64,000 nt of DNA, from positions 1 to 64,000 of the forward strand of contig MU006026.1 in NCBI GenBank assembly GCA_010093745.1, written 5' to 3'. Under the pieces are notes generated by a model. That model searched no databases and was not told where the DNA came from. It saw only the letters and a program-made list of their open reading frames with translations. The stretch comes from Piedraia hortae CBS 480.64 (taxonomy: Eukaryota). Below are positions 1,210-46,300 of the stretch, in pieces; within the stretch, counting starts at the first letter, position 1, and each line of letters begins with the position of its first letter. The position numbers and the translations under genes are program-made.

Positions 1210-4200
1210 CTTCTACAAGGCGGGAAGGATCCACCTTTAAGGCTTGTCGTTCATTGCTCAAATTAGACTGTCGATGTGCGATTGTGAATTATGGCTTCTC
1301 AGGCGGATGAATGTGAGAGATGATCAAGGGTTTTGGAAACTGGTTCTTCGAATTGTGCAGGACTTTATGTAGCCAGTGGTAGTGTACAAGGAAGATTCCA
1401 AACAACAGTTCAACTCTCAGTGTGATAATGTCCGTAACTATGCAGGGAAAGTCGTTCGTGAGCATAAGCTAAAGCGTTACTTGATCATGAGTTGTGCGCT
1501 CCCTTCCTTGTGATCCTGCTCAACGACGGAAGCTATGCACTATGTGTCGGTAATCTTGCGTGGCGCACACAATCCATGCCTGGGATTCACTTTGCATGCA
1601 ATATTCACACCAAGCAAGAAGATTGCAACTTAGCTTCAATTGAGTACCTTGATCGTGCGCTGACCAGCCTTGGCCTGGTTTATGCCATACATCCATTTCG
1701 AGTTTGACAAAACAAAAATCGTTTACCCAGGATGGTGGGTGTATATGAGGTCCGATGAAGAAAACTTAAAGGCCATGAGAATCACCCAGTGTGACTAGAT
1801 GATCACCCTTGATCTCTGCAATGTGACCTTGTTGAGCTCCATCAGATGCTCAAGAGACGATGTCGGGTGATGAGGCGAAAAGATGAATGGGGAGAGGATG
1901 ATGTAGACTGCTCACAACCTATATTCTCCCAAATGGTAGGACTCCCTCTATATCCTACAAGACCTTTGTCTAGGGCCTGAGACCCAAGAGAAAAGAACGC
2001 CGCAGATATAACCTACACTGTGCTTGCGAACAAACCATCGAAGCCCTTAACATGCCAAGCACATATGCATGGCAAGCACATAACTCACATCAGAGGGCTT
2101 GTTCCAATATCTCAGGGACCATCGAGAGTAGCTCACTTAGTGAATCGAGCAGAGAAGGTCAAAGGCTTAAACTTCGTAACAGGCATGAAGTTCAGGGCAA
2201 TCTGTCGTCCAGTTGGACGACCTGTCAGCCTATATAGGGTCGGCTGCAGGGACAAAAATGCTGGCAGTTGGCGCAGGCCCGGTTTTGAGCAAGGTTTCAT
2301 CTTCTATGGAAGCTGTGGATGGCCGCATGGTGTAAGCTGCATTTGCTTTTACACCGAAACGCCTCACAAGTATAGCGCGCGCGATAGACCAAATTCATGG
2401 AACAGCAATGAAACGATTACTAGCTCTTGACACCAGGCTTCCGCAACAATAATCAGGGCATTCTGAATTATTCACATGGACAGAAGACATTTACATCAGT
2501 AACGGCGAGTCATCAAAATTGAGAGAACGGACCTTTTTCACGTCTCAGTACGGTCTGTCGAGTTGATTGACTGAGGAATAACTCAGCGCTGGGCTCAGTC
2601 TCGAAATAAGTGAAGTTTTGTGCGTCATATTTAGGGCCGTCAGAGGTGGAGGAAAGGACTCAAACCTCAGTAAAAAGCAAAGTGAATATTCCAAGATCAA
2701 ACCCCCCTACTAAATACATGTGACGGCATTGTTCTCAACTCCTTTCACGTCTTCATTATTCGGAGATGGATCCGGTCTCAACAATCTTTCCGCAAGCTGC
2801 TAACTTCTGACAAGGGCGCACGATTGATCTTGACAAGATATACATCACCAGAAATTGAGAGGGTATAAGTACCCCAATTCGGTTCATTTCATCATTAATT
2901 CGTTGAGCTCTCAGGAGACTTGAATAATGTGCTTAATCAATACTATCAGCCTTTGATGAGACTCTCTCTTGTCCTAGATTCTTGCGGACAATCAGCAGGT
3001 TCATCAGAGACGGAGATCTCACTACGAATTTGCCTACTAAATCTGCTAGGGTCATTCCCACGTGTCGTTATTGTCAGCGTTGCATGATATCAGTCATTAA
3101 AATAGTCTTTGAGGCTAGAGGCAACGTCCAACTCACGGGGTTCGTCGTTTCCAAGCGGCAAGCAGCAGCCAGAGCTTGTTGAAATCTGGCTAGCAGACCA
3201 CCCCACGCAGTTGTCCTATCCCGGCGCTCGGGAAATGGTAGTTTGGGGAGCTGCACATAAGTGACTGAGATATGCTCGTCATGAACACTGCATCACTGCA
3301 GTTGCATCAATTATCCATTGCTGTGCCATATCGCGGCGTCAAGCCATAAACCTATAATTGCTGGCTGGGGACACGGGCTACGTCGCTACGAGAGTGTCCC
3401 CATGATCATTCTGCCAATGGGACTCAAGTAGTTGATTTACATGGATGCGTAGATGTTGTTAGGTAAATGGGTGAAGCTTCTGTGCAACTGCATGATTTGT
3501 AGCAATTAACTAACAGCCAGAGAGTTTTAACAATTAATCAACTGCTTCTTCTTCTTTTTCAATCGCCTGGTTCGCCGAGATTTGTATCTATCCAAAATTG
3601 ACGATGCCATACACGGTAATTAAGTTGCATAGTTATATGCTGGGAGGAGCTCATTGTCGCTTTGCTAAGAGTTTCAGGGCGTCTTCCTAGGCTCACGTAT
3701 GTATAAGCCTCATCCAGGGGCTGTGAAGCCTTTTGAACACCCAATGGGACGGTATCATTCGAGAGAAACAGCGAGATCATCACTACCCAATTTACACATC
3801 GTCGACTCACCACGACGTTCCGTCATCTGTTCACCTGGATAACACCAGGCTGTACCTTAACAGAGATATGCTACGCATGCTCTCACTCCCCCAAAGCACG
3901 GTTGTAAAGTAGTTTGGTTTCGTCTTCAAGATATGTACGGCGGGACGGGCCGAACCTACGGGAATTCCGCCTTCTCACAGAAACATCATTCGTGCAACAA
4001 CCATTGCACCGTGAATTGTACGTCTTGAAGCCACTGTAAAACAGACATTTGTCTCAAACAAAAGCGTAACTGCTGTGCCGCCTTCGAGCTAATGCGCGGG
4101 AAAGGTATTGCCGTCTGCAGAAATATACCTCTCGACACCACAAGATGTTCCCAAATGATCGGGGAGTGTGCGATCAAACATGAGCGAGCGAAGGAAACTA

Positions 4201-37852: not shown

Positions 37853-39829
37853 ATGAACGGACCGCCACGAGTGAGGAACAAGGCGCCGGCGCCGGTGCAA
37901 ATCAGCGCGGAGCAGCTGCTGCGCGAGGCGGTAGACCGCCAGGAACCGGCCTTAACCGCCCCGGCGCAGCGGTTTGCGGATCTCGAGGAGCTGCACGAGT
38001 ACCAAGCACGGAAGCGCAAAGAGTTTGAGAGCCATGTCTGTCGCAACCGGGTGAACATCGGCAACTGGACACGTTATGCGACGTGGGAATGGGAGCAGAA
38101 GAACTTCGCGCACGCCCGCAGCGTTTTTGAGCGCGCGCTGGACGTGGACGGCGCAAATGTCTCGCTCTGGCTGCGGTACATCGATACGGAGCTCAAGGGC
38201 GGCAACATCCAGCATGCGCGCAACCTCCTGGATCGCGCGACTACCATCCTCCCACGCGTGGACAAGTTGTGGTACAAATACGTTTATGTGCAGGAGATGC
38301 TGGGCGAGGTTGCGGCGGCGCGGGAGGTGTTTGAGCGATGGATGGGCTGGGAGCCGGATGAGGCCGCCTGGGCGGCGTATATCAAGATGGAGAAGCGGTA
38401 CGGCGAGCTGGACCGCGCGCGCAACATCTTCGAGAGGTTCACCGTAGTCCATCCTGAGGCGAGGAACTGGATCAAATGGGCGCGGTTTGAAGAAGAAAAC
38501 GGGACGGCAGACGCCGTACGTGAGGTGTTCGGCGCTGGCATCGCAACATTAGGCGAGGAATTCATGGACGAGAAACTCTTCATCGCATACGCCGCGTTCG
38601 AAGCGCGACTATACGAGTACGAGCGGGCACGAGAAATCTACAAATTCGCACTCAACCGCATGCCGCGGAGCAAGAGCACCCTGCTACACACCCAATACAC
38701 CAAATTCGAGAAACAATTCGGCGACGAGGCGGGCGTGGAAGATGTAGTCCTCGCGAAACGACGTCTCCTCTACGAAGACGAAGTCTCCTCTAACCCCGAA
38801 AACTACGACGCCTGGTTCGATTTAGCCAAGCTAGAAGAGGCCTCCCCATCGTCGACCGAAACCCAAGTCCGAGAAGTGTACGAACGCGCGGTAGCAAATG
38901 TACCCAAAACCAACGAAAAGCGACACTGGAGACGGTACATCTACCTCTGGCTCTTCTATGCGATATGGGAAGAACTCACCTGCAACAATCCCACACGTGC
39001 CCTAAAAATCTACACAACCGCCCTCTCCCAGCTTCCCAAAACGTTCACCTCAACAAAACTCCTCACCCTCAAATCGCACTGCCACGCGCGTCAGCACGAC
39101 CCTACCTCCGCGCGAGCGACCCTCTCGGAGGCTATATCCTCCTTCCCCGAAAAGACCTCCCTCCGCCGGGCTTTAATCACCCTCGAACGCAAACTCTTCG
39201 AATACACCCACTGCCGGGAGGCATTCACAAACTGGCTAACCCACACCCCCACAAACTCCACAGCATACGCCTCCTTCGCGGAGCTAGAAGCCCAGCTCGG
39301 CGAAGTCGACCGTGCGCGGGCGATTTACGAAATCGGGATTTCCATTCCTGACCTAGATATGCCGGAGGTGCTGTGGAAGAGGTATATTGACTTCGAATGC
39401 GAGGTTTCGTTACCCACCCATCCGGAGCGGGCGAGGGGGCTGTACACCCGTCTTCTGGAGAAGACGCATCATCCGAAGGTTTGGATTGCGTTTGCGATGT
39501 TTGAGGTTTCGGTTGGGGAGGTTGATGCTGCGCGGGGGGTTTTTGGGAGGGGGAAGGAGAGGTTAGAGAGGGATGGGGAGGTGGACGAGAGGGTTATGCT
39601 TCTTCAGGCATGGCTGGAGTTTGAGAACGTGCATGGAAGTGAGGAGGAGAAGGGAAAAGTGGAGAGGGAACAGCCGGTTAGGGTTAAGAAGAGGAGGAGG
39701 TTGGAGGATGGGTCGTTTGAGGAGTATATGGATTGGGCGTTCCCCGAGGCGGAGGGGAAGGAGAAGAAGGGCCTGAGTAAACTGTTGGCGTTGACGGAAA
39801 AGTGGAAGAGGGGGGAGAGTGATCCGTAA
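37853..39829 (+). CDS. CLF1: Pre-mRNA splicing factor Clf1/Syf3 (crooked neck, HAT repeats)
   Basis: [72 protein letters not shown] and [12 protein letters not shown]. Confidence 0.96.
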
Positions 39830-40648: not shown

Positions 40649-41898
40649 TCAATTCCCCTGAGCCATCTCCTTCTTCTTCGCCAACTCCCTTTCAGCCCTC
40701 AACCGCTCAAACGTCGCCATCTGCGCATCGACGAGATTGTCGTACGGATCCATTTCTCCGTCGACAGCCATGCCCTTAGTTGGCTCCGGCGGCGAGGACG
40801 CGACCCTTGGAGGACTAACGGGCGGCGGACGCGGCGGTTTGATCCGGCACTTTTGCGCCTTTTTAGGCACCTCTTCGTCCTTTGTCTGCTGCGAAATCAT
40901 GGCGTCTAGGAGGATTTCCTTTTCGAGCCATTCCTGTCGCTTCTCGTGCTCGAGCAGATCGATCTGCTGCTTCAATCGTTCGTGTTCCGTCTGAGCATAG
41001 TGTAGCTGCCGCTCGAGAACCTGGAGGAGGATATGTGCAGGGAGGTTCGACTCGCGCGGTTCGAACTTGATATCAGGCGGATAGTGGATCATGAATCCAG
41101 CCTGCTGGGTTACGGGATGACGGGCAGGGACATATGTTATATTGTCGTTGGCCGGTGAAGGCGTAACTGGGTTGCCGTCCTCGTCCTCGGTTGGGCCCAG
41201 AGCAGCGTCCGGCACCGAGTTCTTGAGCTGCAGCTTGGCGCCCTTCTTAGGCGGCGACGCTGCCCCTCCACGCGGCTGCTCCGGCTCATGCACGGTGCGC
41301 ATGTGCTTGGAGAGGGCGTCGCTGCGGGTGAATGACCTGTCGCATTCTGGGCGATCAGCCTCTACGCTTGCTTAAGGGATGGACTAAACTCACCAGGCAA
41401 ATCGCAGTAATATGGCTTTTCCTTGGTATGACTCCTCATGTGCGCCTTCAGGGCGTAGCCGCTGGGATGGACGGCGTTCTTCTTCTGGCACTCGCCCCAT
41501 TCGCAGAGAAACTTGGCCTTTTTAACTCCGTTGGCAGCACAGTGGGTCGACTGAACGTGCTTGACAAGCTCGTCGTTGTTATCGGCCTCGCCAAACGGAC
41601 AGTCGCGCCAGAGGCAGCGCGTCTGAGCTTCGTCGCGCAGAGCCCATTCGTCGGGCGCGTTGGCCTCGTCAGGTCCATCTGACCAGCCATCTTCAGTCGG
41701 CGCGTCGCCTTCGTCAGCTGGCTGCGACGACGGCGGCCGTTCGACGGAAAAGGCCAGCGATGATGGCCCCGTCTTGCGCTTCTTGGCCGGCGGCGCGTGG
41801 CCGTCGCGGGGCTTGGGAACCATCAAGTGCCCGTCGTGTTCGTGCTCGGAGTCTGAAGGCGGTTCGCTCAGGTCGGAAATGTCCGAAGATTCTGCCAT
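40649..41898 (-). CDS. IEC1: GLI-like C2H2 zinc-finger protein, INO80 subunit Iec1-like (intron 41393-41347)
   Basis: Three fingers: CLWRDC..HVQSTH, CEWGEC..HPSGYALKAHMRSHTKEKPYYC, and, after splicing, LPECDRSFTRSDALSKHMRTVH. C-terminal coiled coil W.EKEILLD. Confidence 0.82.
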
Positions 41899-41982: not shown

Positions 41983-42018
41983 GTCACGTCCGTCACATCC
42001 GTCACATCCGTCACATCC
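41983..42018. repeat. 4 x 9-bp tandem GTCACATCC in the divergent promoter (Homol-D-like CCGTCACA)
   Basis: GTCACGTCC GTCACATCC GTCACATCC GTCACATCC lies between the IEC1 ATG and the snoRNA host intron. Confidence 0.8.
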
Positions 42019-42086
42019 AACGACAGCTCCAACATCACCCCACACATCACCAACACACATCATCCCTCGCTTTCCAGCCCGATGCC

Positions 42087-42252
42087 GTAAGTCTCCCCCT
42101 ACCAACCCTCTGAAAGATGAACAAGAGAATTCTGCAATGCCAACCGTCCATTGGTGGACTGAATGCGGATGAATTAACCAAAACTACACTTGATCTGACA
42201 CCTTACATTAACAACAAGCCATTCATATCGGGAACTGTGCTGACTTTGGCAG
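42087..42252 (+). other. Spliceosomal intron of a non-coding snoRNA host transcript
   Basis: Perfect GTAAGT donor at 42087, GCTGAC branch at 42239 and CAG acceptor at 42252. It is 166 nt, about three times the local intron size. No coding exon flanks it. Confidence 0.75.
42111..42200 (+). ncRNA. Box C/D guide RNA, predicted targets U2 snRNA A30-equivalent and 5.8S rRNA G75-equivalent
   Basis: Box C aaGATGA (42114-20), D' CCAA (42140-43), C' cgGATGA (42166-72) and D CTGA (42195-98). ACTACACTTGAT (42183-94) is the exact complement of U2 AUCAAGUGUAGU. GAATTCTGCAAT (42127-38) is the exact complement of fungal 5.8S AUUGCAGAAUUC. The D+5 rule hits known methylation positions in both. Confidence 0.88.
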
Positions 42253-42283
42253 CCTTGTAGAACGCTGGAAATGCTTGGTGCTC

Positions 42284-42718
42284 TATTGCAATCTGAAAAA
42301 CGACAAATGAGCCACTAGCGATTCTTGTGCTGTACAGCAATGACTATCTGCCATCCGCCCATGAACGTCCTCGGCGCGTAGCGTTTTGGGTGCGAAACTG
42401 TTATCGACGCCCCGTTGGCCAGGTCGTTGCATCTGCCTGACCTGTCGAAGTGTGACTCGAGGCGTGCACTGTCGTTGAGGCCACTCTACGGTTGTTCTGG
42501 CACGTCCTCGAATTCACCCCGTAGACAACTATCCTTAAGACCCCTCAAATCTAGGCGGGAGTCAAGGGCCCCCCCTCCCCTAGACTTCCTCGTTTCGTTC
42601 GAGCTGTCTCGTTGTCGCTTCCGCCTTTGCTGATGGCTGAGGTTCGTTCTGCACTTGCGGATGCGGGATCATGGACATCGTAGTCCCTATGGCAGCGTTT
42701 TACCGCCCTTTTCCTCTC

Positions 42719-42749
<31 letters not shown>

Positions 42750-43276
42750 AGGGGGAGTCGCCACCCCGTTGGTAGAGACGTAGTGATTTTGTCTCGGGAA
42801 GGATGAAGGAAGTTATGTCGAGCCCGGCCTCAACCTTACCATAAATGCTTCGAAACCTGGCATCAGCCAACAGCTATGACACAGCAATTAGCTGCATTGT
42901 GTCGGTATAAAGTTGTTTCGTAGCATAGCCTATGGTCCCTACGAGCAGTATCTTGGCCTCCCGCACCATTGACACCCAACCGGAAATTCCTGCCTCTGGT
43001 CTCCAATCTGAAGGAGTACTGTAGCTGAGCAATCGGGCCGAAGAAATGTCGTTCTGGCGGTGGAATTCATCATTGTGTGCGGTCAGTCACTAGACCTCTG
43101 TGGCCACAGATTTACATATCAGAGGATTGTTGAGTGGAAGAGGCTTGTAGACAGGATTGTAGACAGGAACAACAATCTTTCGTCTTAAGTGTACGACAAC
43201 GGCTAGGCGCAATGTAGAATATCTGGTTAGGAAGGCGCGGCGGAGCCAACCCTGGTCGGTCGCTCCTTCCACAAAT
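42284..43276 (+). ncRNA. Candidate ~1-kb structured ncRNA with H/ACA-like 3' end
   Basis: No credible ORF. Nested long-range stems include 42329-43/43070-83, 42351-67/43050-63, 42477-83/42954-60 and 42584-603/42793-813. H-box AGAATA at 43216-21, terminal hairpin 43230-70, ACA at 43271. Confidence 0.5.
42721..42749 (+). repeat. Poly-G tract (29 nt)
   Basis: Uninterrupted G run flanked by CTTTTCCTCTCCC and AGGGGGAG. Confidence 0.9.
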
Positions 43277-43368
43277 CCCATAAAATGTCAATAGCAGCAA
43301 TACGCTCCTCTATCAGTTGGACTAACGAACAAGGAACCAGCCTACCATTAAACCCCCATTAAACCCAC

Positions 43369-46300
43369 TCAAACATAGCTCGTCCTCCTCCCTGTATCAA
43401 GTCAGCTTTCCACCCAGAGTTATCAACCACATCACTCACCAGCCCTCTCCTTAGTAGCACCCCCCTTCCCCTTCTCATTGAATTCCCTCTCCTCCCTCCT
43501 CAACCTCCTCCTCTCCGCCCTCCTCTCCTCCTCCTCTTTCGCAGAGCGTCTCGCCTCCTTCTCCGCCCGTTCCGCCCGTTCCGCCCTCCTAGCTCTCCGT
43601 TCCTGCCTCTCCCTTTCCTCCGCAGCAGCAAGTTCCGCCGCTTTACGCGCCCTTCTCTCCGCGCGTCTCGCTTCCCTAGCCTCGGGAGTCTCGACCGTCT
43701 CCGCAAGAGGCGAAGTTAACTTCCTCTCCTCCCTCCTAAGTCTCTTTCCCTCATCATCCCTCCTAACACGGTTCTCACTCTCATGCCGAGAGGGCGCCGG
43801 TCTTCCAAACCCAAAAATAGTAGACATCAACCCTCCCCCTCTCTTCGCAGAAGAGGTCGTAGACCTCCGCTGGAGAGCAGGCCGGAGGTCGAATTCGAGG
43901 TTGGGGGGTTCCTGGGGTGGTGATTTTAGCGCGCCGTGCATTTTTGCGCTTGGACGCTTGTTTCGGCGAGGGTGGTCGACGAATACGAGGTCGTCGTCTT
44001 CTGTTTCTGGAGGGGGTGCCTTTTCCCGTCGGGATTTGGTAGGGATTCCGGCGAGTTTTGCCGCTTTTTCGGGGATATCTCCCGTTGGAGGGACGACAGT
44101 GGAGTGTCTTCGTGACGGTCTTTCGCGCTCGCGCGTGGATTTTGAACGTGAGGGTGTTCCACCGCCGATTCCGAAGAAAGAAAAGCCCATCCCGCGTGTT
44201 GTGCTTCCTGCCCGACCGTATCGTTCAGAGCCAGAGGAAACGTCGTTTGCTCTGCGTGAGGATTTGCTTCGGGTTAGACTTGGTCGGGCTTCCCTAGCGG
44301 GGGACGTTACGGGTGGTGCTTCTTTGACGCGTGATTCACGTCGGCTGCTGCTGCTACCACCACCTGTCTTTGGGGGAGGGGAGGTTGCACCCCAAAATGC
44401 CCATGAGCTGGACCCGGGCTCGCGAACTACCTTTGGGCGTTCTTTTTTCTTTTCTTTAGGTAGAGGTGCAGCCTCGACGGGTTTGGATCGCTCGCGTTTT
44501 TTCTCTTTGGGAGGAGCTTCGACTTCGGCGACTTTGGAGGCTCTTTTGGAGCTTGATTTGTGTTTTTCGGACCTTTTAGATGGCTTAGAAGCCTCGTCTA
44601 CGACGGCTGCAACCCCGGGGGTTGGTGGCGGTGCCGCCTCTTCCAAGGGAAACTCGCCTGGTAGGGGTGAGCGTGGAGGTGCCGGTGGAGGTGGAGGTTC
44701 TGCTGCCTCGACTACCTTTTTGGACTTGGACTTTTTCTCCACCACTGGCTCCATTGGAGTTGAGGGTGCGGAAGCAGCTTCGGCGGCTTTTTTGGCCTTT
44801 TTCTCCTCTTCCTTGCTTTTGGTCTTCTTGTCCTCTTCTTTGATCTTGACTTTCTTCTCCCCTTCATTTATTTTCACCTTCTTGTCTTCCTTCTTTTCCT
44901 CCTCCTTCATTTTCACCTTCTTGTCGTCCTCTTTGCTCTTGGCTTTCTTGTCATCCTCTTTGGATTTGGCCTTCTTCTCCTCTTCTTTAGGCTTGACATT
45001 AATCGCCTCGATGTTAGCAGGTGCAGAAAAGTCCAACATATCCTCCTCGGCCTGAACGCCAGCAAGAATATCAGGTACCACCTCTTCCTTTGGCGTAGCT
45101 GTCTTGGACCCACGGCCCAAAAAGCCCCATCCTGCAGATTCAGTCTTTTTAGCTGGCTCTGTAACGGACTTGGTCTTGGTTTCCTTGGTACCGGCCTTCT
45201 TGATGGTGGTCTTTTTCTTCGCTGCGGAAGTACCCACACCTAGGAAGTCAGTGTGGCTTTCGTCCAGAGCTGCGCCAAAGGCGTCTTCGTCGGCCTTTTG
45301 CTTGTCGGCTGCTTCTTTTGCTGCCTTTTCCGCGGCTTCTTTTTCGGCTTTTTCTTTCTCTGCCTTCTCGGCCGCCTCTTTCTCTACCTTTTCAGCGGCT
45401 TCCTTCTCTGCCTTTTCCGCTGCTTCCTTGTCAGCCGCATCTTTCGCTGCCTTCTTGGCTGCTTCCTTTTCCTTTTTCTCCGCCGCTCTGCTCTTGGTCT
45501 TGTCAGCGGATTTGCCAACGCCAAGGCTGCTCCACATGCTGGACATTATTCCCGACGAGGTCGGTTCTTCCTTGACCGGCTCAGCAGATGTGGGGTCGTC
45601 TATCAGACTTTCAACAGTCCATTCTTCTTCCTCGCCGATCGCCTTTTTGCCTATTATCCTCTCCTTCTTACCCACTGTGCCAAACTTGTTCCTAGGAATA
45701 GTCAGCAGAGCTTGTATTTACCCTAAGTACGCACCAGGTGGTGTTGTTGTCCTGGTCTTGGACCAAGGCCGGCTGCACCGATGCCTCTGCATCGCCACCG
45801 AGGACCTCGATAATGCCTCTGGACTTCTTGTTGTCCTTTGGCCGCGTGCCAGTTTCCCATGCCGACCCATCGTCCATCGAGGCGGGGTTGATTGCTAGCT
45901 TTTCTTCCGATTTTGACGGAAGCAGTGCGGGTTCGTCTCTACTCTTGCCTTTTTTGCCCTTGCCGTTGGCTTTCTTGCCCCTGTACCCTGGTTAGCTGTC
46001 TTTGCGGACTGTTTGAAGAGCATACCAAGTTTCGTTCGGCCAGTTATTATCGTCTGCAGAAGTGCCTGCGGCTGTGTTATCAAGTGGATTGGCATCACCC
46101 CAGGAAAAGCTGCTTTTGTTAGTTTTCGACTTTGAAGCCTCGGTCAGACTTGCCTGCCTGCTCCAAACTCTCCTCCCATGCCGCCCAGACCGGGAAGTAT
46201 TCCCTTTGCATCCTTGCCAGTTTTGTCCTTGCCCCTGCGTAGATGTCAGTATAATTGTCTATATTGGCCGGGCACGCTTACAACGTTTTGGCAAAGTCTT

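Follow-up and report, generated by a model that had tools for sequence, protein, structure and literature searches.

Does the oversized and apparently non-coding intron at positions 42087-42252 on contig MU006026.1 of Piedraia hortae CBS 480.64 (assembly GCA_010093745.1) give rise to one box C/D RNA that guides the modification of both a spliceosomal and a ribosomal RNA, and would such an RNA be new? To address this question we examined the locus within the window, by which we mean the whole stretch of 64,000 nucleotides analysed here, and compared it with relatives, family models and published snoRNAs. We consider it highly likely that positions 42109-42200 on the plus strand hold the functional local orthologue of the snoRNA known as Afu-191, AM921920 or CD_35, and that it is processed from an intron. 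The elements of the locus are as follows, with A1 denoting the alignment of the window copy and its relatives described below.

42087..42252, plus strand: predicted GT-AG intron hosting the snoRNA, 166 nt, from consensus signals in the sequence and a layout common to the relatives
42087-42092, plus strand: 5' splice site GTAAGT, from the sequence
42109..42200, plus strand: box C/D snoRNA, very probable Afu-191 orthologue (Rfam RF01499; CD_35), from Rfam and our own model R1, the ends being those of the Rfam model match
42114..42120, plus strand: box C region AAGATGA (AAGAUGA in RNA), from the sequence, with A replacing the usual U before GAUGA
42127..42138, plus strand: D' antisense element GAATTCTGCAAT against 5.8S nt 71-82, from exact 12-nt complementarity
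42140..42143, plus strand: degenerate D' box CCAA, from the sequence, a single base separating it from the 5.8S guide
42144-42150 with 42155-42161, plus strand: hairpin between D' and C', with loop UUGG and one C.U mismatch
42164..42172, plus strand: C' box region (A1 columns 79-87), UGCGGA by homology (42164-42169), with an overlapping GGAUGA (42167-42172) in this copy only
42183..42194, plus strand: D antisense element ACTACACTTGAT against U2 nt 26-37, from exact 12-nt complementarity, directly adjoined by box D
42195..42198, plus strand: box D CTGA (CUGA), from the sequence
42240-42244, plus strand: branch-point-like CTGAC, from the sequence
42250-42252, plus strand: 3' CAG, from the sequence

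The window copy is therefore read in the order box C, 5.8S guide, D', hairpin, C', U2 guide and D. A sequence-only reading of this locus had proposed two perfect 12-nt antisense elements in register with D-type boxes, nt 42190 facing U2 A30 and nt 42135 facing 5.8S G75, and our comparison with reference RNAs bears out the elements, their positions and their register. Positions 42183-42194 are the exact reverse complement of U2 nt 26-37 (L055, a U2 gene by Rfam at 143.5 bits) and also match the Rfam U2 consensus, and positions 42127-42138 are the exact reverse complement of 5.8S nt 71-82 (L106:272-425, a 5.8S gene by Rfam at 169.5 bits), the reference sequences being those of other eukaryotes and not of Piedraia hortae itself. 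The U2 references came from the metagenome pattern scan described below, as genes on the opposite strand (Rfam U2 in four of four tested, 129-143 bits), and the 5.8S references from a scan with the ITS3 primer, which found eukaryotic rDNA contaminating bacterial assemblies (Rfam 5.8S in four of four tested, 155-175 bits). The fifth nucleotide upstream of CTGA, nt 42190, lies opposite U2 A30, and the fifth upstream of D', nt 42135, lies opposite G74 of 5.8S in a numbering that starts from AAC, which is the G of AAUUGCAG and corresponds to Gm75 in the human and A. fumigatus records. The locus thus shows, for U2 and 5.8S alike, what defines a guide of this class, namely an antisense stretch of at least 10 nt that adjoins D or D' and whose fifth nucleotide faces a known modification site, and it has a box D of CUGA near the 3' end. 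The U2 guide duplex, at nt 26-37, includes part of the branch-point-binding GUAGUA, and it had been suggested that the RNA might shield this region of U2; we found no support for such a role. Pairing in this region is required of every guide for A30, SCARNA9 among them, and nothing in the sequence sets shielding apart from it.

A lone antisense 12-mer carries little weight, because 12-mers antisense to the two RNAs occur at four places on both strands of the 64-kb window, where 2.5 single 12-mers are expected by chance. At the remaining two, 11304 and 46966, no D-type box comes next. The two guides of the snoRNA are on one strand at a distance of 45 nt, a D-type box follows each of them in register, and a box C lies upstream. 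Judged from the sequence, this arrangement of paired guides in register with boxes is beyond chance, and the relatives remove the doubt.

These relatives were obtained from a metagenome scan whose pattern consisted of GATGA, a gap of 50-80 nt and a 15-nt U2 guide with box D, and which did not ask for the 5.8S guide. The scan returned 96 loci with 75 distinct cores. In 35 of the 96 loci (28 distinct) the 5.8S G75 guide was found in the place equivalent to that in the window, the constancy of U2 guide, box D and GATGA among these relatives being by construction and the filter having also demanded 9 nt of the 5.8S guide. Alignment A1 comprises the window and the 28 distinct relatives. Within it, the 5.8S guide reads GAATTCTGCAAT in 16 sequences, GAGTTCTGCAAT in 11 and a single variant in each of the other two, so that all 28 relatives carry the 12-mer or a G.U-compatible variant, and the A/G variation faces a U and preserves pairing. 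Model R1, built from the 28 relatives with the window left out, matched the window at 42108-42204 with 68.5 bits (E 8.4e-15). Applied to all 96 loci, it gave 63.7-94.1 bits for the 35 family loci and at most 31.8 bits for the other 61, with nothing in between, and among these 96 pattern loci there was no family backbone lacking the 5.8S guide. A second R1 match in the window (1790-1852, 12.8 bits, E 0.36) was attributed to chance, and the 64-kb window held no second credible R1 copy.

The loci outside the family are of several kinds. Fourteen of the 96 are U2 genes on the other strand (by eye, with Rfam confirming four of four tested), and in L001, L011, L018 and L055 the U2 genes are at most a few hundred bases away from genes for 5S rRNA, U4, U5 or U3-like RNAs, in small-RNA gene clusters of some non-fungal eukaryote, the U2 of which reads GGCUCAGAUC. 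Two others (L050, at 395-494, and L074) are of the Neurospora crassa CD29 type, with the same U2 A30 guide and a D' guide that forms a 17-bp duplex, with one G.U pair, with 5.8S nt 39-55 and places A42 at the fifth position. Seven more (L033, L044, L052, L073, L002, L030 and L029) have a CD29-like motif after D' and a D' guide that, by eye, is decayed or different. The remaining pattern hits look by eye like chance occurrences in unrelated, mostly coding-looking contigs. One GC-rich locus, L007:393-490, is window-like in its 3' half, from C' to box D, and has no 5.8S guide in its 5' half; it scored only 28 bits with R1 and may be a relative that lost this guide. As by-products, the scan provides a 28-sequence environmental alignment in which the D' box is usually not CUGA and the guide is nonetheless retained, as well as the presence of the CD29 type with an intact 5.8S A42 guide in environmental fungal contigs.

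At gathering thresholds Rfam gave no match anywhere in the 64-kb window. With permissive thresholds, positions 1-93 of the Afu_191 model (RF01499) aligned to 42109-42200 with 41.4 bits (E 5e-05), which is below the gathering score of 60 bits, an operational cut-off rather than a biological feature. Both guides equal the model consensus in this alignment and the spacers diverge; the seed is presumably Aspergillus-centred, as we take from the name of the family and the 2008 paper. The combination that marks the Afu_191/CD_35 family, a 5.8S G75 guide and a U2 A30/32 guide in one RNA, is present in the window. Table 1 of Jöchl et al. (2008, PMC2377427) lists Afu-191 with 11 cDNA clones, a 92-nt cDNA and a 90-nt northern band, and the entry gives as putative targets 'Gm75 in 5.8S and Am32 in U2 snRNA' (accession AM921920). 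Canzler et al. (2018, PMC5824354) describe AM921920, as CD_35, among the eight C/D families in which two target regions are conserved, and place it in Pezizomycotina. The proposal that one RNA serves as double guide for an snRNA and an rRNA is hence upheld by the exact pairing and by the annotation of Afu-191 with the same targets. The suspicion, voiced at the same time, that a homologue might already be catalogued in filamentous fungi was correct as well, as RF01499 and the 2008 and 2018 descriptions attest, and with a homologue already catalogued, the claimed novelty is mostly gone. A weak Rfam match to plant snoR31 (42160-42226, plus strand, 22.4 bits, E 0.52) covers the half of the RNA with the U2 guide; the snoR31 consensus has ACACUUGAUCUGA in common with this guide, a hint of a possibly related guide in the plant RNA.

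Given the degenerate D' box, it had to be considered whether the RNA is made and only the U2 guide at box D works, the 5.8S guide being idle since a D' of CCAA and its C' would be too degenerate to hold a second set of core proteins. The letters of the window are in keeping with such a view, D' being CCAA and C' being UGCGGA by homology, and the cognates of CD29 in other fungi are described as retaining the U2 guide alone (Liu et al. 2009, PMC2780460). However, the D' box in the 29 sequences of A1 reads CGGA in 11, CCAA in 7 including the window, CTGA in 6, CCGA in 2, and CAGA, CTGC and CGTA in one each; judged from these sequences, CCAA is one of the normal states of the family and the canonical CUGA is a minority state (6/29). 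All seven CCAA copies retain the 12-nt duplex with 5.8S, the sole variation of the guide is the pairing-neutral A/G exchange opposite U, and no backbone-only copy was met among the pattern hits, with the R1 scores parted at 63.7 and 31.8 bits. In addition, compensatory change maintains the hairpin between D' and C'. We therefore regard an idle 5.8S guide as unlikely, and the earlier caveat that the CCAA box might be inactive is largely answered, as CCAA occurs in 6 of the 28 relatives and CUGA in only 6, and all of them keep the guide.

The hairpin itself is well defined and can be formed by all members. In columns 43-48 and 70-75 of A1, 90.8% of the cells are paired, and a shift of the partner by 1-3 columns lowers this to 25-59%. 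Changes on both sides were seen in six of six pairs, the covariation score was reached by none of 500 shuffles, and RNAalifold independently gave the same D'-C' helix. The window copy has five of the six aligned pairs and one extra, with GUCC/GGAC in place of the common GUUU/GAAC. Both arms are altered, and these compensated letters argue for a window copy that is still under selection. No terminal stem joining boxes C and D was found, either as flank complementarity in A1 or with RNAalifold, and the fold of the single sequence was no better than that of shuffles (z 0.14). A missing terminal stem is common for intronic fungal snoRNAs, and an unremarkable single-sequence fold is normal for guide RNAs, in which the antisense elements have to remain unpaired.

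The intronic origin of the RNA rests on signals that are shared across the family. A GTRNGN motif lies 27-47 nt upstream of box C in 29 of 29 A1 sequences, and CTRAY followed by YAG lies downstream in 27 of 29, mostly 51-62 nt past box D, one of the two exceptions having too short a flank; both intron signals occur together in 6.7% of shuffled flanks. For comparison we used X1, a run labelled 'RNA?', which we consider RNA-like because its contigs skip introns of the neighbours; these contigs are unstranded and keep the commoner path. Two minus-strand GT..AG introns, 41347-41393 and 43391-43438, are spliced in X1 and measure 47 and 48 nt. The 166-nt interval is about 3.5 times larger, and the excess is about the length of the snoRNA. 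In the contigs of this one RNA-like run there is no joint of 42086 to 42253, and a contig of 2073 nt skips 41347-41393 yet is continuous across 42087-42252. This contig shows that an unspliced form exists. Failure of splicing does not follow from it, and here lies the main gap in the evidence. The oversized GT-AG intron of the sequence-only reading thus stands as regards its signals, its conserved layout and its size relative to the neighbours, and lacks the spliced joint in X1.

The unbroken contig would also suit an RNA that is not derived from an intron and is instead cut from an unspliced or independently transcribed precursor, like many yeast snoRNAs, and the entry of Afu-191 in A. fumigatus as intergenic, between Afu1g10270 and Afu1g10280 (PMC2377427), points in the same direction. 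On the other hand, 27-29 of the 29 members have the splice layout, its spacing varying little, compared with 6.7% of shuffles, and in N. crassa CD29 is intronic and most C/D snoRNAs are described as intron-encoded (PMC2780460). The term intergenic of 2008 may merely reflect a non-coding host that was unannotated. Taking these points together, an origin outside an intron seems quite improbable to us, and we continue with the RNA as intron-derived.

The host looks non-coding, because the plus strand has no ORF of at least 60 aa between 42172 and 45203 and because Rfam, at E up to 1, gave no further credible snoRNA in 42200-43500; an archaeal sR30 look-alike on the minus strand of the latter interval (17.6 bits, E 0.11) was put down to chance. 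Several features of the neighbourhood may be recorded here. A divergent zinc-finger gene has its ATG near 41898 on the minus strand, and between it and the snoRNA host, at 41990-42016, there are three perfect tandem copies of CCGTCACAT after a degenerate copy, which may be promoter elements. The presumed host transcript contains a run of 29 G at 42721-42749, where the X1 contigs break. The intron at 43391-43438 covers the stop codon of a 704-aa ORF (43432-45546), and that gene therefore extends into a further exon. About 2.3 kb upstream of the snoRNA, an ORF of 658 aa (37853-39829, plus strand) encodes HAT repeats of the Syf1/CRNKL1 (Clf1/crooked-neck) type of pre-mRNA splicing factor; its proximity to a U2 guide is probably coincidence.

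The 5' part of the RNA holds a feature that the earlier reading had overlooked, an off-consensus box C. Near the 5' end, where RUGAUGA is expected, the GAUGA core is in place and the preceding U is A, which gives AGAUGA in the window versus UGAUGA in 28 of 28 relatives in A1, at a position that the scan pattern had left free. The X1 contig is identical to the window at box C, with no other letters, and the A is hence not an assembly slip in the window alone. In K-turn structures, the U before GAUGA is a flipped-out base held by Snu13/15.5K, and by analogy the altered box may weaken snoRNP assembly. We also observed that the copy with the altered box C has gained GGAUGA over the homologous C' (UGCGGA).

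One could conclude from the deviating box C, together with X1 contigs that show the unspliced form only, that the window copy is decaying or poorly functional, its assembly weakened and its intron retained, while another locus is active. Yet both guides, box D, the GA dinucleotides of box C, the compensated hairpin and all three intron signals are intact, and the 64-kb window offers no second copy to take over. The missing splice junction weighs little in this respect, because rare variants are lost from contigs and the host RNAs of snoRNA genes, once spliced, tend to be unstable. Decay of the window copy appears highly improbable to us, and we retain the reading of a functional snoRNA.

Here we propose how such an RNA might be made and act. 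A short host transcript with no ORF of at least 60 aa, whose strand and start we infer, would arise from a promoter region common to it and the divergent zinc-finger gene; the host region is represented in run X1. The 166-nt intron 42087-42252 would then be spliced out, as its consensus signals and conserved layout suggest, and, following general box C/D biology, the lariat would be opened by debranching and trimmed down to about 90 nt, the RNA being protected by Snu13, Nop56, Nop58 and the methyltransferase Nop1/fibrillarin. On 5.8S nt 71-82, the D' guide is predicted by its pairing and register to direct 2'-O-methylation to the G of AAUUGCAG, and on U2 nt 26-37 the D guide would likewise direct it to A30. 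The hairpin, which is established by covariation, might serve to join the degenerate D' and C' boxes. That both the U2 and the 5.8S sites are methylated by this snoRNA in Piedraia hortae is, from sequence considerations, probable.

In terms of significance, little goes past annotation. Positions 42109-42200, which Rfam leaves unannotated at its gathering threshold, can be labelled a CD_35/Afu-191 snoRNA, and 42087-42252 an intron that carries this snoRNA within a non-coding host gene. The family offers a clean example from nature of a single guide RNA for rRNA and a spliceosomal RNA, but the family, both of its targets and its occurrence across Pezizomycotina are already known from the published descriptions, and the point of an rRNA/snRNA double guide has been printed three times (2008, 2009 and 2018). 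The altered box C and the additional GGAUGA at C' could together mean that particle assembly has changed in this lineage specifically. CD_35 and CD_29 have one architecture, and both combine a U2 A30 guide with a guide for 5.8S, directed at G75 in the former and at A42 in the latter. It might further be asked whether this repeated coupling is a real link and not history. 5.8S makes up only an estimated 3% or so of the rRNA length, and if CD_35 or CD_29 arose from the other, the D' guide has moved within 5.8S. Such a shift would, if true, be a hint that one particle ties the modification of U2 to that of 5.8S, functionally or spatially; we regard a real link as distinctly doubtful. We know of no scaRNAs described in the organisms of the Afu-191/CD_35 family.

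Compared with known systems, the human parallels that had been drawn for this locus are sound. Human SCARNA9 (mgU2-19/30), likened here by description only, resembles the window RNA in directing 2'-O-methylation to the corresponding adenosine of U2. It differs in belonging to the Cajal-body RNAs and in being reported to have U2 as its sole substrate and no rRNA guide. Human SNORD96A/B share with the window RNA the predicted guide for 5.8S Gm75, which sits in AAUUGmCAG and is listed as 92% methylated, and differ from it in being a 72-nt RNA from an intron of GNB2L1; the Rfam SNORD96 model did not match the window at gathering or permissive thresholds. N. crassa CD29 comes closer, being an intronic C/D RNA whose D guide addresses that same adenosine of U2 (Am31 there, 16 bp) and whose D' guide addresses 5.8S (Am42, 14 bp), and both methylations are described as visible as primer-extension stops in N. 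crassa; its U2 element is given as homologous to that of human SCARNA9, its functional counterpart (PMC2780460). Unlike CD29, which is 101 nt long and whose D' guide addresses 5.8S A42 and not G75, the window RNA pairs through its D' element with 5.8S nt 71-82 and not with nt 39-55. The closest system is Afu-191 itself, from which the window copy differs in its D' box (CCAA, not CUGA), in its AGAUGA box C, in diverged hairpin and spacer sequences and in lying inside a clear GT-AG intron, whereas Afu-191 was given as intergenic, and with which it agrees in the order of elements, in the sequences of both guides, in the predicted targets (5.8S Gm75 and U2 Am30/32) and in a length of about 90 nt.
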